Shown: piece after piece, positions 49,561 to 54,918 of the stretch | Numbering within the stretch: position 1 is the first letter of the stretch | How the letters are laid out: each line of letters starts with the position of its first letter | Assembly (NCBI GenBank): GCA_964421015.1 | Contig: CAYQUS010000004.1 | Span: 53,744-117,743, forward strand | Origin: an uncultured Planctomycetia bacterium | GTDB taxonomy: Bacteria; Omnitrophota; Gorgyraeia; Tantalellales; Tantalellaceae | Reading direction: 5' to 3' | Length of the DNA stretch: 64,000 nt | The notes under the pieces: model-generated | Seen by the model: only the letters and a program-made list of their open reading frames with translations | Databases searched by the model: none | Told to the model about the DNA's origin: nothing | Program-made: the position numbers and the translations under genes

Positions 49561-49634
49561 GCGAGCGTAGCACAATGGTAGTGCAGAAGCCTTCCAAGCT
49601 TCCTACGTGGGTTCGATTCCCATCGCTCGCTCCA
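49561..49634 (+). tRNA. tRNA-Gly (anticodon TCC)
   Basis: GCGAGCG-TA-GCAC-AATGGTA-GTGC-A-GAAGC-CTTCCAA-GCTTC...GTGGG-TTCGATT-CCCAT-CGCTCGC-T-CCA. Confidence 0.85.
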
Positions 49635-50136: not shown

Positions 50137-50469
50137 CTATTTCTTATCGGTGCCCATAAGGGCTCCGCGTCTTTCCTCTCTCCTCTCTTGCCTTCTTTCT
50201 ATGCCGGCTTCTACTATGCCGGTGGCTTCCTTACCCACTTCTGATACGGCGGAAACAGCCGGTAGAGATGCTTTTTCGGAAGAAGCCGCGGTTTCCTGTA
50301 CAGCCGGGGTTTCTGTAACGATAGGGGCAGATCCCTCGGTAACAGCCGGAGCTTGAACGGAAACTTGCGTTTCATTGGCCTGCTGATCTACATTCTCTGG
50401 CTCTTCCGCGGCGAACGCCATACTGGAAACGAAAACTAATGCCATCACCATACTAATAATTTTTTTCAT
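50137..50469 (-). CDS. Small secreted low-complexity (Ala/Glu/Val/Thr-rich) protein with an Arg/Glu-rich C-terminus
   Basis: 110 aa; signal peptide MKKIISMVMALVFVSSMAFA. Confidence 0.45.
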   Translation of the reverse strand: MKKIISMVMALVFVSSMAFAAEEPENVDQQANETQVSVQAPAVTEGSAPIVTETPAVQETAASSEKASLPAVSAVSEVGKEATGIVEAGIERRQERREERRGALMGTDKK

Positions 50470-50730: not shown

Positions 50731-51522
50731 CTACTCCGCTATCTCGATGCAGTTAATAAGGAAGGTCCTGAGCTCCTGACGGAGATGACAGAAAGAATAA
50801 ACATAATCGCCTTTTATGCTCAGGGGGGTGATAGTCCTTTCCGTGATCTTTTCTTTCCACGAAGACCTGTACCTGATCTTTACGGGATCCTGTGTCTTTA
50901 TGGCTCGGTTCAATACCGTTAGCACATTCCCGCCGGCGGCAGCCGGGCCGGCCGTCTGCGTATAGGTCCTGGCTATATCCTCAACGTTCTCTATACCTCG
51001 TTCTTTCAGGACCTCTAAGGCCTTATTAAAAACTCTCCAGGTGGATATTACATCTGCCAGTGCCCTGTGCTGGAGTTCCGCCTTGATATCGAAATATGAA
51101 ACCACATTACCAAGACTATAACCGCCCGGAACGGTGAAACAGCTCCTTGCCAGCTCAAGAACGTCTATAACAAGATAATCGTTAAGTTCGGTCCTTTTAG
51201 GCCCCAGGGCCGCGGCCAGAAAACTTATGTCGAACCTGGCGTTATACGCTAGAAGAACTGAACCCCTTATGAATTCCATAAACCCGGGCAATACTTGGTC
51301 TATTACTGGCCTGCCTTTAAGCATGTCAGAAGATATCCTGTTCACTCTGTAAGCGCCTGGTGAAACGGGCCTTAAAGGGTCCACAAGCTCCTCAAAAACG
51401 CTCTCTTTACCGTCAGGCTCGCGGCGCATTGCCCCGATCTCGCATATAGCGTCACCTGAACCGGCAAAAAGCCCGGTAGTTTCAAAGTCGAAAACCGTAT
51501 ATGTAGCTTCACTTAAATTCAT
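50731..51522 (-). CDS. DnaQ-like (DEDDh) 3'-5' exonuclease fused to a C-terminal WYL-like domain
   Basis: Exo I motif FDFETTGL; Exo III H...D motif (QHRALADV). C-terminal about 70 aa is VKIRYRSSWKEKITERTITPLSIKGDYVYSFCHLRQELRTFLINCIEI, which matches the WYL-domain pattern. Confidence 0.7.
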   Translation of the reverse strand: MNLSEATYTVFDFETTGLFAGSGDAICEIGAMRREPDGKESVFEELVDPLRPVSPGAYRVNRISSDMLKGRPVIDQVLPGFMEFIRGSVLLAYNARFDISFLAAALGPKRTELNDYLVIDVLELARSCFTVPGGYSLGNVVSYFDIKAELQHRALADVISTWRVFNKALEVLKERGIENVEDIARTYTQTAGPAAAGGNVLTVLNRAIKTQDPVKIRYRSSWKEKITERTITPLSIKGDYVYSFCHLRQELRTFLINCIEIAE

Positions 51523-51579: not shown

Positions 51580-52386
51580 TTATCCCGATACTTTATAAGT
51601 GATACCCTCGCGACTTCCCTCTGCCGGGTATTTATTTATCTCCTCTTTGGCCGCGGCTATCCTTTCGTACAGATACGGATGGCTGCGGAGAAAATACACC
51701 CATTTCGCATCCCCTCCAAGCCGCTGTAATTTCTCGAGGAATGTAACTATGGCGTTCGGGTCATATCCCGCCTGATACATGTACTTTATGGAAAGCCTGT
51801 CAGCCGCGTATTCGTCCTGTCGCGAAAACCCGTTGGCCGCCAAAGTGTAAACAACGTTGGCCGCCTGCGAAAAATACTGCCATGCCTGGTCTTTTTTATC
51901 GGCGGGCCGCGTATCTAAAAGATATGCCAGGTTAAGGGCCATCTCGGCGCCGAGCCCTTTTTCCACCATTTTCATCACATGCCTTGCCTCATCATGGCCC
52001 ATCTCATGGGCTATAACCGCGGCAAGCTCGTCATCCGTAGCCGCGGCCAGAAGGCCCGTGGAAACCACTATGTAACCGCCTCCCGGAGTGAAGGCCTGTA
52101 TTTCCTTATCCTCGTAAACTATTATGTGTTTGTCGCGGATACGCGGAGAACCTATGGGAGAGGCCAGAGCGCGGGCCGTCTCAAGGGCCCGGGCATCCTT
52201 AACCAAGACTTTTCCCTGAAGTTTAGCTCTCAGGGTATTGATCGCGATGGAATCTTCCTGCTCTAGAGAAAGCCAGGCAGCCTCGTTTTTCTGAGTAGCA
52301 GGATTGTAATAGGTCGCGCAGCCCGAAAAGACCGCGCACATGAAAACCGCCAGAAAAAAATTTAAATACCTCAACGCCCTCATCAT
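51580..52386 (-). CDS. M48-family zinc metallopeptidase lipoprotein
   Basis: Lipobox FSGC; HEMGH zinc motif (AHEMGHDEARH). Confidence 0.75.
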   Translation of the reverse strand: MMRALRYLNFFLAVFMCAVFSGCATYYNPATQKNEAAWLSLEQEDSIAINTLRAKLQGKVLVKDARALETARALASPIGSPRIRDKHIIVYEDKEIQAFTPGGGYIVVSTGLLAAATDDELAAVIAHEMGHDEARHVMKMVEKGLGAEMALNLAYLLDTRPADKKDQAWQYFSQAANVVYTLAANGFSRQDEYAADRLSIKYMYQAGYDPNAIVTFLEKLQRLGGDAKWVYFLRSHPYLYERIAAAKEEINKYPAEGSREGITYKVSG

Positions 52387-52522
52387 AATTCACCATGCAT
52401 TCTCTGTCCGGGCTTTTTAAATCGCCGCGCTCATGCCCAACCTTTTCGTCTCAAAAAAATAAACGGTCCGGGGACGCCATACACCCGGGCCCCGGACCGT
52501 TCTACACACGAATAATTCCGGA

Positions 52523-53191
52523 TCAGAACGACCAGTTAGCAAGGACCATGAATTCCATAGGATCCTTGTTGCCGTTATAGTTACCCAGGCCTATTTGAAG
52601 GCCGTTCAGGTTGTTGGTGTAATTCACAAGCCCGAGCTGAAATCCCTTCATTTCGGCGGCGTAATTTACAAGCCCTCCCTGAAAACCCTTAAAAGTACCG
52701 TCGTTGAAATTTACGACGCCAAGCTGGGCGCCTACGGATTCTCCTTTGGAAACGTTAAGAACACCGCACTGCCCCCCGTGCAGAGTCCCTTCCGTCCAGT
52801 TCACAAGACCCCACTGTATGCCTGTGGTGTCACCGCCTACAATATTAGCCATGCCGTACTGAAGCCCCACAAAGCGCTGTTTAACGTAGTTTACCATTCC
52901 TATCTCTATACCGTAAGCGGATCCCTCAACCCAGTTACCAAGACCGAACTCTACTCCGCTCATGTCGCCGGTGGTCCTGTTGACACCGAACCACACAAGG
53001 CTTAGACCCGTAACGTCCTTGTTGACGGTGTAAAAAACGCTGAGCCTAAGCCCCTTTATTGACTGGTCCTCAGGCACGGTCTGTACAGGGTTGAAAAGCG
53101 CGAGCTGTAAAGGCTGTGCCTCCGTGGCAAAAGCCGTCCTGGCCATTGCCGAGATCAAAATAACTGCCGCCACAAAAAATTTTTTCATCAT
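52523..53191 (-). CDS. Secreted outer-membrane-type repeat protein: about ten tandem 15-residue repeats (consensus h-Q-x-G-h-V-N-aromatic-x-x-G-x-x-x-G) and a C-terminal Phe
   Basis: Signal peptide, then repeats such as IEIGMVNYVKQRFVG / LQYGMANIVGGDTTG / IQWGLVNWTEGTLHG / FQGGLVNYAAEMKG / FQLGLVNYTNNLNG. The protein ends ...LANWSF. Confidence 0.6.
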   Translation of the reverse strand: MMKKFFVAAVILISAMARTAFATEAQPLQLALFNPVQTVPEDQSIKGLRLSVFYTVNKDVTGLSLVWFGVNRTTGDMSGVEFGLGNWVEGSAYGIEIGMVNYVKQRFVGLQYGMANIVGGDTTGIQWGLVNWTEGTLHGGQCGVLNVSKGESVGAQLGVVNFNDGTFKGFQGGLVNYAAEMKGFQLGLVNYTNNLNGLQIGLGNYNGNKDPMEFMVLANWSF

Positions 53192-53297
53192 GTTTTTCTC
53201 TCCTCCTTTTAACCCCCGGTTTTATATTTTCCGATTTCCCTATTCAGATTCTACGCCTTAGGGAACATATTTTCAAACTTTATCTTTTTGAACGTCT

Positions 53298-53720
53298 CTA
53301 TTCCCCGATCACTTTTATCAAAACCCTTTTACGGCGCTGTCCGTCGAACTCTCCGTAAAATATCTGTTCCCACGGCCCCAGATCAAGTCTGCCGTTCGTG
53401 ACCGCTACCACCACTTCTCTTCCCATAACGGTCCTTTTAAGATGAGCGTCGGCGTTGTCCTCTCCGGTGAGGTTATGTTTATATTTGTCCACTCCGTAGG
53501 GCGCGAGTTTTTCAAGCCACACCAGAAAATCCTGATGCAGTCCGGACTCATTATCGTTGATAAAAACAGAACTTGTTATGTGCATGGAGTTAACAAGACA
53601 CATCCCTTCCTTAGCCCCGCACTTTTTTACGGCTGCCTCCACCTGTGGCGTTATATTAATAATGTCGTACCTTTTTTCGGTGTTTAACCATAGATAATCC
53701 GTATGAACTTTCATCGCCAT
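53298..53720 (-). CDS. YjbQ-family (UPF0047) secondary thiamine-phosphate synthase-like protein
   Basis: 140 aa matching the YjbQ fold motifs (DITP...[13 protein letters not shown]...HLKRTVMG). Confidence 0.7.
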
Positions 53721-53827
53721 TCCTTTTTCTTTTTACCGGCCTTGAGTTTGAACGCCAGGCTCTCTTTTTTCTCTCTCTGAAGGCGCGATATGTCTTTCTG
53801 GCGCCGGGTTATTGTGTGTTTAGTCAT
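53711..53827 (-). CDS. Possible 38-aa highly basic peptide overlapping the yjbQ start (speculative)
   Basis: Hand-translated [43 protein letters not shown] sits 8 nt upstream. Its TGA overlaps the yjbQ ATGGCGATGA start region. Confidence 0.2.
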
Positions 53828-53838
53828 TCGCTCGCTCC

Positions 53839-54045
53839 TCACTTTAAAGGTTCAGGATCTTTGCACGCGGCCCAGACCAAAGCCGCCACCCATCCTATAA
53901 AAGTCCAGCCAAGGAGCAGGTTCAGTATAAAAATAGCCCCGGCATTACGTTTTCTTCGGCCGACTATGGCGGGCAGAAAATAAAAGAACAGGCTGAATAT
54001 GACCGCTAACGCGATGATAAGTACCGCGATCGTTCCTTCTTGCAT
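53839..54045 (-). CDS. Imm-type superinfection immunity family small membrane protein
   Basis: 68 aa; LPAIVGRRKRNAGAIFILNLLLGWTFIGWVAALVWAA matches the conserved core of the T4 Imm-like (PF14373-type) family. Confidence 0.6.
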   Translation of the reverse strand: MQEGTIAVLIIALAVIFSLFFYFLPAIVGRRKRNAGAIFILNLLLGWTFIGWVAALVWAACKDPEPLK

Positions 54046-54276: not shown

Positions 54277-54404
54277 GCCTCGGTTATTATTTGTCTTGGT
54301 GTCCCTTGGAGCCGGGGTCGGCTCCAAGGATCCCCCATCTTTCCGGGAATCTCACAAAAACTTTCCGCCCAAGGTAAGGAAAGTTTTTGTGTATAGGTTA
54401 AGCT

Positions 54405-54489
54405 GGTGGGGAGGGAAGGATTCGAACCTTCGAAGGCGTAAGCCGGCAGATTTACAGTCTGATGCGTTTGGCCACTTCGCTACCTCCCC
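54405..54489 (-). tRNA. tRNA-Tyr (anticodon GTA), class II with a long variable arm
   Basis: Minus strand GGGGAGG-TA-GCG...CTGTAAA...long variable arm...GAAGG-TTCGAAT-CCTTC-CCTCCCC-A-CCA. 85 nt. Confidence 0.85.
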
Positions 54490-54750
54490 GAACGAGGTGT
54501 ATTCTATGTTATAGAGCGCTTTTTGTCAAATAGCCTAAACTTTGACCTGTGATTGCTACTTGCATATTACTGTTTTTTTAGATCCTTCGGTCGCTTCGCT
54601 CCCTCAGGATGACGAACTTTAGGCTCAGGAAAACACCTTGGTGACAGGCACCTTTGTATCACAACATAGACCAGACAAAGTTGCCAGTCACCAGTCGCGG
54701 CAAAGTTGCCAAACACCTTTGAAAACACATTGGTGCCAGGCACCAATTGC

Positions 54751-54799
54751 TTCCTCCTTCCTCCTTCCTCCTTACTCCTTACTCCTTACTACTTTCTAC
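54751..54799. repeat. Seven tandem degenerate heptamers (TTCCTCC x3, TTACTCC x2, TTACTAC, TTTCTAC) in the tRNA-Thr/tRNA-Tyr spacer
   Basis: Direct reading of the plus strand. On the transcribed (minus) strand it is a purine tract (GGAGGAA)3(GGAGTAA)2.... Confidence 0.8.
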
Positions 54800-54808
54800 T
54801 TAAAGACA

Positions 54809-54884
54809 TGGAGCCGGCGGAGGGATTTGAACCCCCGACAGGCTGATTACAAATCAGCTACTCTACCAACTGAGTTACGCCGGC
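54809..54884 (-). tRNA. tRNA-Thr (anticodon TGT)
   Basis: Minus strand GCCGGCG-TA-ACTC-AGTTGGTA-GAGT-A-GCTGA-TTTGTAA-TCAGC-CTGTC-GGGGG-TTCAAAT-CCCTC-CGCCGGC-T-CCA. Confidence 0.85.
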
Positions 54885-54918
54885 ATTCTATCGTTTTAAA
54901 GAGCATCGACCCGTAAAA

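Follow-up and report, generated by a model that had tools for sequence, protein, structure and literature searches.

Proteins of the LA_2272 and VC2662 families share a repeat motif and are exported by diderm bacteria. LA_2272 is known only from bioinformatic lists of predicted surface or outer-membrane proteins (PMC2387172, PMC5348505), and one survey of it used the β-helix of pertactin (1dab) as a threading template (PMC2387172, PMC5348505). VC2662 is an uncharacterised hypothetical protein found in the outer-membrane-vesicle (OMV) proteome of Vibrio cholerae (PMC10865864). In a ΔompU mutant its level rose more than that of any other protein (log2 2.5), and OmpA, OmpT and OmpV rose with it (PMC10865864). 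Our full-text literature search on LA_2272 and VC2662 returned no function for either. What this literature supports is limited to a location of the family in the envelope. Here we examine a gene of 222 codons plus a stop codon (52523..53191, minus strand) in a 64,000-nucleotide stretch of an Omnitrophota genome (assembly GCA_964421015.1, contig CAYQUS010000004.1; the whole stretch is called the window below), as given by the list and translation of its open reading frames (ORFs). The product is a new member of this named, very large and functionally uncharacterised family. We consider it likely to be a Sec-exported, capped, non-enzymatic right-handed β-solenoid rod of the LA_2272-repeat type, expressed from a transcription unit of its own.

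A member of the LA_2272 repeat family

We compared the protein with the family models of NCBIfam. NF047436, named "LA_2272 family surface repeat", matched it at 66 bits (E 1.9e-18; cut-off 25), with seven matched stretches at E ≤ 1 and three at E ≤ 0.001, and also matched 51 of the 51 sequences in the alignment that served as input for structure prediction (alignment A1). The tandem repeats in an exported protein that characterise the family are present in the query, as nine repeat units recognised by a hidden Markov model (HMM), a significant 15-residue periodicity (z = 7.6) and the features of a signal peptide. NF047435, the LA_2272/LA_2273 lipoprotein model, scored 39.2 bits (cut-off 30) over its repeat part only (positions 35-59 of 59). 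We rejected a lipoprotein identity, as the query has no lipobox Cys; the Leptospira LA_2272 and LA_2273 proteins carry a lipobox, where the query has a type I signal peptide instead. NF047437, the VC2662 family equivalog model, gave 87.5 bits (E 7e-25), below its cut-off of 140. On these scores the query is a homologue of VC2662 but not an equivalog. In its OMV proteome table (Table S2), PMC10865864 labels VC2662 "PhaC PHA synthase", and the name used elsewhere in that paper is "hypothetical protein"; the first label seems to come from a database in which a repeat protein was misnamed.

A Pfam scan of the query gave no match even at E ≤ 1. A match to a well-characterised periplasmic family had been named in an earlier, sequence-only reading of this DNA as something that would speak against its proposal of an outer-membrane protein; the family matched here has a name but is uncharacterised. 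It has no Pfam model and no solved structure, large as it is, and its members are annotated almost everywhere as "hypothetical protein". What the present analysis adds is a fold assignment, a repeat logo and a domain anatomy of conserved cap rungs around an expandable middle, which is of modest practical value.

Close relatives (up to 73% identity) came almost entirely from metagenome-assembled genomes (MAGs) of Omnitrophota. Most are nameless in public records, and nearly all of those with a name are "hypothetical protein". Scanning one genome per Genome Taxonomy Database (GTDB) species for the C-terminal pattern gave 288 confirmed relatives, whose hosts outside Omnitrophota were MAGs of Verrucomicrobiota/Kiritimatiellales, Ignavibacteria, Gemmatimonadetes and Eisenbacteria. 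The query falls in an Omnitrophota-centred subgroup in which the N-terminal rung typically reads PxQLALFNPxQ and the protein ends in NWSF. When 1.84 billion cluster representatives were searched with a profile, 9,825 matched at E ≤ 1e-3, and 959 of these at E ≤ 1e-30; clusters of the wider family were defined at 50% identity, and lengths ran from 148 to 1,009 residues. The members of 770-1,009 residues (P0147-P0160) contain 5-8 repeat blocks. Fusions to other domains are sporadic and uninformative among the long members (ankyrin repeats in P0147, a caspase domain, Peptidase_C14, in P0195), most of which have no other domain. No relatives were found in the viral contigs of IMG/VR, and a phage origin was rejected on this ground.

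A 15-residue repeat spans the mature protein

The sequence-only reading had described a near-perfect tandem array of ten 15-residue units. A repeat with this period is clearly present at the level of the motif: the BLOSUM62 autocorrelation of the mature sequence at lag 15 was +0.31, against -0.97 ± 0.17 for shuffled sequences (z = 7.6), and peaks occurred solely at lags 15, 30, 45 and 60, every other lag being at background. The array is far from perfect, as residue identity at lag 15 is 23%. The repeat peptides listed in that reading are all present, in order, at residues 69-211. As to their number, the repeat HMM recognised nine units, starting at residues 79, 94, 109, 124, 139, 154, 169, 183 and 197 (residues 79-211; 52559..52957, minus strand), two of which have 14 residues, and degenerate units lie at either end of these nine. 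The repeat Asn recurs at residues 34, 57, 71, 86, 101, 116, 131, 146, 161, 176, 190, 204 and 219. It marks 13 rungs, which cover the entire mature protein.

We built a logo from 233 full units detected by the repeat HMM in the query and 120 relatives. It reads G1(100%) [VWLI]2 [QE]3 x4 G5(98%) [LAVIF]6 V7 N8(91%) [WYIV]9 in its first part and [VTS]10 [EGK]11 G12(83%) x13 F14(72%) x15 in its second.

The two ends of the array are distinct. The first rung and its loop (residues 24-44, EAQPLQLALFNPVQTVPEDQS; 53060..53122, minus strand), defined from the alignment and from DSSP, have an occupancy of 0.99 and a mean majority frequency of 0.64 in alignment A1, with Q37 invariant and Q29 nearly so. 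DSSP assigned a strand at residues 26-33 and a loop at residues 34-44 of the AlphaFold2 model, and this rung is probably the N-terminal cap. The last rung (residues 212-222, MEFMVLANWSF; 52526..52558, minus strand) is delimited by the alignment, the logo and a modelled strand at residues 214-221, where the predicted local distance difference test score (pLDDT) exceeds 90.

The predicted fold is a right-handed β-solenoid

The sequence-only reading had left open whether the protein is a small β-barrel or a β-solenoid, to be settled by structure prediction. The prediction favoured the solenoid and gave no support to the barrel. The AlphaFold2 model of the query, computed from the 51 sequences of alignment A1, had a mean pLDDT of 93.3 and a predicted template modelling score of 0.82. 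Past the signal helix it is all-β: strands of about 6 residues alternate with strands of about 4, the period being 15. The same architecture was predicted for a distant relative of 163 residues (P0114) from an alignment of its own (A2), with a pLDDT of 89.9.

The best structural neighbour of the query was the region IV β-helix of the antifreeze protein MpAFP (Protein Data Bank (PDB) 3p4g), at a sequence identity of 15%. It was followed by two-partner secretion (TPS) domains, autotransporter passengers and tailspikes, and by bactofilin in the case of the short model; these folds are right-handed and aligned at 2-3.5 Å. Enzymes of the left-handed β-helix (LbH) fold and left-handed antifreeze proteins aligned at 8-12 Å only, and because of this difference we read the model as a right-handed solenoid. 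A transmembrane barrel was absent from the structural-neighbour lists of both models. Foldseek against the PDB gave nothing significant (best E 0.73), and a sequence-profile search of the PDB found no solved relative, its only match being a marginal one to designed pentapeptide solenoids (4yfo, E 0.0019). On the predicted models, we are confident that the fold is a right-handed β-solenoid with 15 residues per turn.

The composition of the repeat suggests which side chains would face inwards. Charged residues occupy positions 3, 11, 13 and 15 in 30%, 71%, 50% and 15% of cases, respectively, and positions 2, 4, 6, 7, 9 and 14 in 0-4%. From this distribution, positions 3, 11, 13 and 15 are likely at the surface, and the hydrophobic positions 2, 4, 6, 7, 9 and 14 most probably form the core. 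Parity alone gave no consistent inward and outward assignment unless a bulge was placed at Gly1. Strict strand alternation fails across F14-x15-G1-h2-Q3-x4, and we therefore infer a bulge or corner at Gly1.

Several known solenoids invite comparison. The region IV domain of MpAFP from Marinomonas primoryensis is a Ca2+-dependent right-handed β-helix with coils of 19 residues, compared with 15 here. The query has no Ca2+-binding GTGND turn, and the similarity lies at the level of the fold, the PDB profile search having revealed no sequence relation. The β-helices of type V passengers and TPS proteins (HMW1, EtpA, HxuA, Ag43, Hap) are much larger, have three-sided coils and need a linked barrel or a TpsB partner, neither of which is present at the query locus. 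Pentapeptide-repeat proteins (COG1357, YjbI) come to mind from the label YjbI that the Joint Genome Institute (JGI) gives to one homologue and from the weak profile match to 4yfo. This identity was rejected, as the lag-5 autocorrelation (-0.99) is at background and no Pfam Pentapeptide match was obtained at E ≤ 1. An NCBIfam match to SmQnr (E 0.14) is noise.

Export signal and the C-terminal strand

The N-terminus, MMKKFFVAAVILISAMARTAFA followed by TEAQ, has two Lys residues, a 13-residue hydrophobic core and an A-x-A site. These features define a putative type I signal peptide at residues 1-22 (MMKKFFVAAVILISAMARTAFA; 53126..53191, minus strand) that lacks the Cys of a lipobox. In the AlphaFold2 model the segment forms a detached helix (residues 2-20) of lower pLDDT, and its layout is also conserved across the homologues in alignment A1. 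Cleavage after A22 would leave 200 mature residues. No Cys that could belong to a lipobox occurs in residues 1-30; the sole Cys is residue 142, and the signal ends in AFA before TE. We also looked for lipoprotein variants among the close relatives and found none that was convincing. Export through Sec without lipidation is part of the explanation that we consider likely.

The protein ends in NWSF, as the sequence-only reading had stated, and that reading took the aromatic C-terminus as a sign of dependence on the β-barrel assembly machinery (BAM). In alignment A1, every sequence has N219 and F222, and at least 90% have W220. The terminal Phe is present in 103 of the 120 matches of the first search, and about 12 of the 120 carry one extra residue past it. 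The segment FMVLANWSF agrees with the pattern of a β-signal at F(-1), W(-3), A(-5), V(-7) and F(-9). Its LANWS part is equally repeat positions 6-10, L217-A218-N219-W220-S221 corresponding to h6-V7-N8-aromatic9-x10. Because LANWS is in the repeat register, N219 and W220 belong to a normal last-rung motif and only the final Phe is special. With ordinary rung positions making up LANWS and some relatives extending past the Phe, the C-terminus, which may still be a β-signal, does not by itself support BAM dependence; a C-terminal aromatic residue alone does not make a protein a BAM-dependent barrel. In the simplest reading, the C-terminal strand with its Phe seals the hydrophobic core where the rod ends.

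Rung number differs between species

The sequence-only reading had also proposed a 45-nt DNA repeat whose copy number might vary among strains, by analogy with phase-variable antigens. Tandem Repeats Finder (TRF) detected no tandem array in the DNA at a minimum score of 30, and our DNA repeat search found in-register matches of only 16-40 nt at 70-80% identity. Because there is no tandem repeat in the DNA, the repeats are old and diverged and are not substrates for slippage. All four public contigs retrieved for the same species, of nine contigs examined, encode an identical 222-residue protein. Neither a 45-nt DNA repeat nor copy-number change between strains was therefore borne out, and a phase-variable repeat antigen, which would have near-identical slipping DNA repeats, was rejected on the TRF and repeat-search results.

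Variation was seen at a larger evolutionary distance. Measured in relatives, the stretch between the N-terminal motif and the C-terminus falls into length clusters of about 134, 148, 164, 179, 194, 209 and 224 residues, in steps of about 15. Occupancy drops to about 0.7 in the central rungs (residues 118-162), which are also the least conserved. It stays at 0.95-1.0 in the first five rungs and the last three (0.96-1.0 for the terminal rungs), and conservation is highest in the last three. As judged from these alignments, rung number varies between species, not strains, through what appears to be ancient gain and loss of whole units in the middle rungs.

A proposed capped rod and its alternatives

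In the structure that we propose, the 200-residue mature chain would wind into a single right-handed solenoid of about 13 rungs, each made of 15 residues with one strand of about 6 and one of about 4 residues. β-Solenoids usually rise by about 4.8 Å per rung. About 13 rungs would therefore give a rod roughly 60 Å long. Gly at positions 1, 5 and 12 would permit tight turns or bulges, Asn8 would form a ladder along the rod, and the surface would be polar, including a row of Gln/Glu at position 3. The first and last rungs, which are the most conserved and always present, would probably act as caps or folding nuclei, and gain or loss of whole middle units between species would alter the length of the rod. 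Located in the cell envelope, either in the periplasm or associated with the outer membrane, the rod might serve as a rigid spacer or binding scaffold, with its C-terminal Phe probably closing the core at the last rung and not acting as a barrel-insertion signal. Several points count against this proposal. The inward and outward assignment of side chains comes from residue statistics and is self-consistent only with a bulge or corner at Gly1. The invariant Phe and the hydrophobic residues at -3, -5, -7 and -9 also fit the β-signal of an outer-membrane protein (OMP), so that the C-terminus may have a role in outer-membrane targeting. Since the query scores below the VC2662 equivalog cut-off, the location of VC2662 can be transferred at the level of the family only. 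In addition, a ΔompU ΔVC2662 double mutant resembled the ΔompU single mutant (PMC10865864).

The solenoid could instead be docked or displayed at the outer membrane by its C-terminal strand and act as a surface adhesin or antigen, the NWSF strand either being recognised by BAM or β-augmenting a partner barrel. This would fit the strong conservation of the terminal rung and Phe, the family name "surface repeat" chosen by the NCBI curators, the TPS and autotransporter passengers among the structural neighbours, one homologue that adjoins a FadL-type barrel and a TPS-domain protein, and the behaviour of VC2662, which is found in OMVs and rises with OMPs in the ΔompU mutant. OMV presence fits a protein of the periplasmic lumen equally well, however, and no partner barrel gene is conserved beside the family, no lipid anchor is present and in the AlphaFold2 model the last strand is buried like that of any other rung; we regard docking as unlikely. 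The same C-terminus is what would recommend a BAM-inserted transmembrane β-barrel, the first option of the sequence-only reading, in which the 15-residue units would be hairpin strands and NWSF the β-signal. The C-terminus matches aromatic-x-aromatic-COOH and is hydrophobic at -5, -7 and -9, the terminal Phe does not vary in alignment A1, the NCBIfam repeat model spans 30 residues (two units), and LA_2272 has been listed as a predicted OMP (PMC5348505); all of this points that way. The models nevertheless showed no closed barrel of antiparallel strands crossing the membrane in even number, and we hold the barrel to be highly improbable.

Two further readings concern what the rod might bind or build. 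A self-assembling fibre subunit, in which the end rungs would be polymerisation interfaces for bactofilin-like stacking or for templating of the kind seen in curli CsgA, is suggested by the Q-x-G-x-x-N spacing shared with CsgA. CsgA is likewise small and exported, consists of β-strand-arc-β-strand repeats and has an aromatic C-terminal residue. Its repeats have 19-23 residues, against 15 in the query, whose core is hydrophobic, whose ends look capped and which has no csgBEFG context. Homology to curli was rejected, on an hhalign probability of 0.6% against CsgA, the lack of a Curlin_rpt match (Pfam, E ≤ 1) and unrelated neighbours. The fibre reading is further weakened by the lack of linked csgEFG-like or other secretion genes, by E/D at position 3 in 30% of the units, unlike the buried Gln ladder of an amyloid, and by the conserved end loops (34-44 and 207-213), which resemble caps and would block stacking; we think it very unlikely. 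Binding of ice or of another ligand on a flat surface, analogous to MpAFP region IV, strikes us as scarcely credible. The region IV repeat has 19 residues (xGTGNDxuxuGGxuxGxux), with a Ca2+-binding Asp and a Thr/Asx ice face. The resemblance that suggests ice binding comes with 15% identity, a period of 15 and not 19, and no conserved Asp or Thr for the Ca2+ and ice site of MpAFP. The family also occurs in mesophiles (Vibrio cholerae, Leptospira), and the likeness is that of a generic narrow solenoid.

Beyond the capped rod that we favour for this protein, there is an outside chance that LA_2272-repeat proteins in general are widespread, unrecognised envelope rods that interact with other molecules through their invariant end rungs. 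By means of their β-signal-like C-terminal strand they may engage BAM or an outer-membrane barrel, as partners or as clients that are not barrels themselves, or their ends may stack into periplasmic or extracellular filaments. If such a view were true, rung number would set molecular length, and the rise of VC2662 without OmpU would reflect a role in outer-membrane homeostasis. Should the family act in envelope homeostasis or assembly, VC2662 of V. cholerae would be a tractable model.

Transcription signals and genomic neighbourhood

The protein encoded by the coding sequence (52523..53191, minus strand) is identical on the public contigs, including GCA_029565455.1. A Shine-Dalgarno sequence (AAGGAGGAG; 53200..53208, minus strand), read from the sequence, stands 8 nt before the ATG. 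Upstream of it, a consensus scan picked out a σ70-like promoter candidate (53248..53276, minus strand), consisting of TTGAAA, a 17-nt spacer and TAGAAT (10 of 12 matches). It is a pattern match only: the scan found six sites of this kind in the region, and chance would give 4.1. An intrinsic terminator (52453..52501, minus strand) starts 22 nt past the stop codon. In the RNA fold, the outer stem of its hairpin is GC-rich and 12 bp long (AACGGUCCGGGG / CCCCGGACCGUU), and UAUUUUUUU comes after it. The folded segment (52430-52525, minus strand) had a free energy of -38.6 kcal/mol (z = -3.65), and none of 200 shuffled sequences folded equally well. A simple terminator scan missed the hairpin, its loop being longer than 8 nt. 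The solenoid gene is thus predicted to be an independently transcribed unit with its own promoter-like site, Shine-Dalgarno sequence and terminator.

The local gene order is Imm_superinfect, YjbQ/UPF0047, solenoid gene, M48 peptidase and RNase_T-WYL, and it is reproduced solely on the same-species contigs. The sequence-only reading had correctly noted that the solenoid gene is co-oriented with the M48 peptidase gene and the RNase_T-WYL gene. A functional link with the two does not follow: the terminator separates the solenoid gene from the M48 gene, which is next downstream (51580..52386, minus strand), and among 86 loci the M48 neighbour was present in only the four same-species contigs. An operon with the M48 and WYL genes was rejected for the same reasons, the terminator in between and the absence of the linkage outside the species. 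In a search for conserved neighbours at 75 non-redundant loci, no family occurred in more than eight, and single loci that were inspected had very different neighbours; the context therefore provides no functional clue.

The neighbours have some features of their own. The M48 peptidase starts with MMRALRYLNFFLAVFMCAVFSGC, which looks like a lipoprotein signal with its Cys, and the enzyme is probably, to judge by this start, an envelope lipoprotein protease of the LoiP/BepA kind. The RNase_T-WYL gene (50731..51522, minus strand) encodes a DEDD-type RNase_T exonuclease (residues 10-165) fused to a C-terminal, ligand-sensing WYL domain (residues 200-260). This combination is uncommon, and the protein might be a nuclease under regulation. 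Two genes upstream of the solenoid gene, 53839..54045 (minus strand) encodes a 68-residue membrane protein that belongs to Imm_superinfect (PF14373, E 4.6e-15), and its position is kept in the same-species public contigs. At loci L001-L004, a 38-residue ORF is called between the Imm_superinfect gene and YjbQ (at about 53720..53840 of the window), and the start of YjbQ differs among public gene calls, giving 138 or 140 residues. The gene cluster is flanked by tRNA-Gly(TCC) (49561..49634, plus strand), tRNA-Tyr(GTA) (54404..54489, minus strand) and tRNA-Thr(TGT) (54809..54884, minus strand), and in the tRNA region (54296..54916) several of the listed ORFs are spurious. A 110-residue protein encoded at 50137..50469 (minus strand) has a signal peptide, no Pfam family, a low-complexity middle rich in Ala, Glu, Thr and Val, and a highly charged C-terminus (ERRQERREERRG).

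The window contains no paralogue of the solenoid gene. In some Omnitrophota genomes and in one MAG labelled Deltaproteobacteria, paired paralogous solenoid genes lie adjacent or near to each other (L032, 2427-3949; L041, 6001-7582; L047, 5955-9648).

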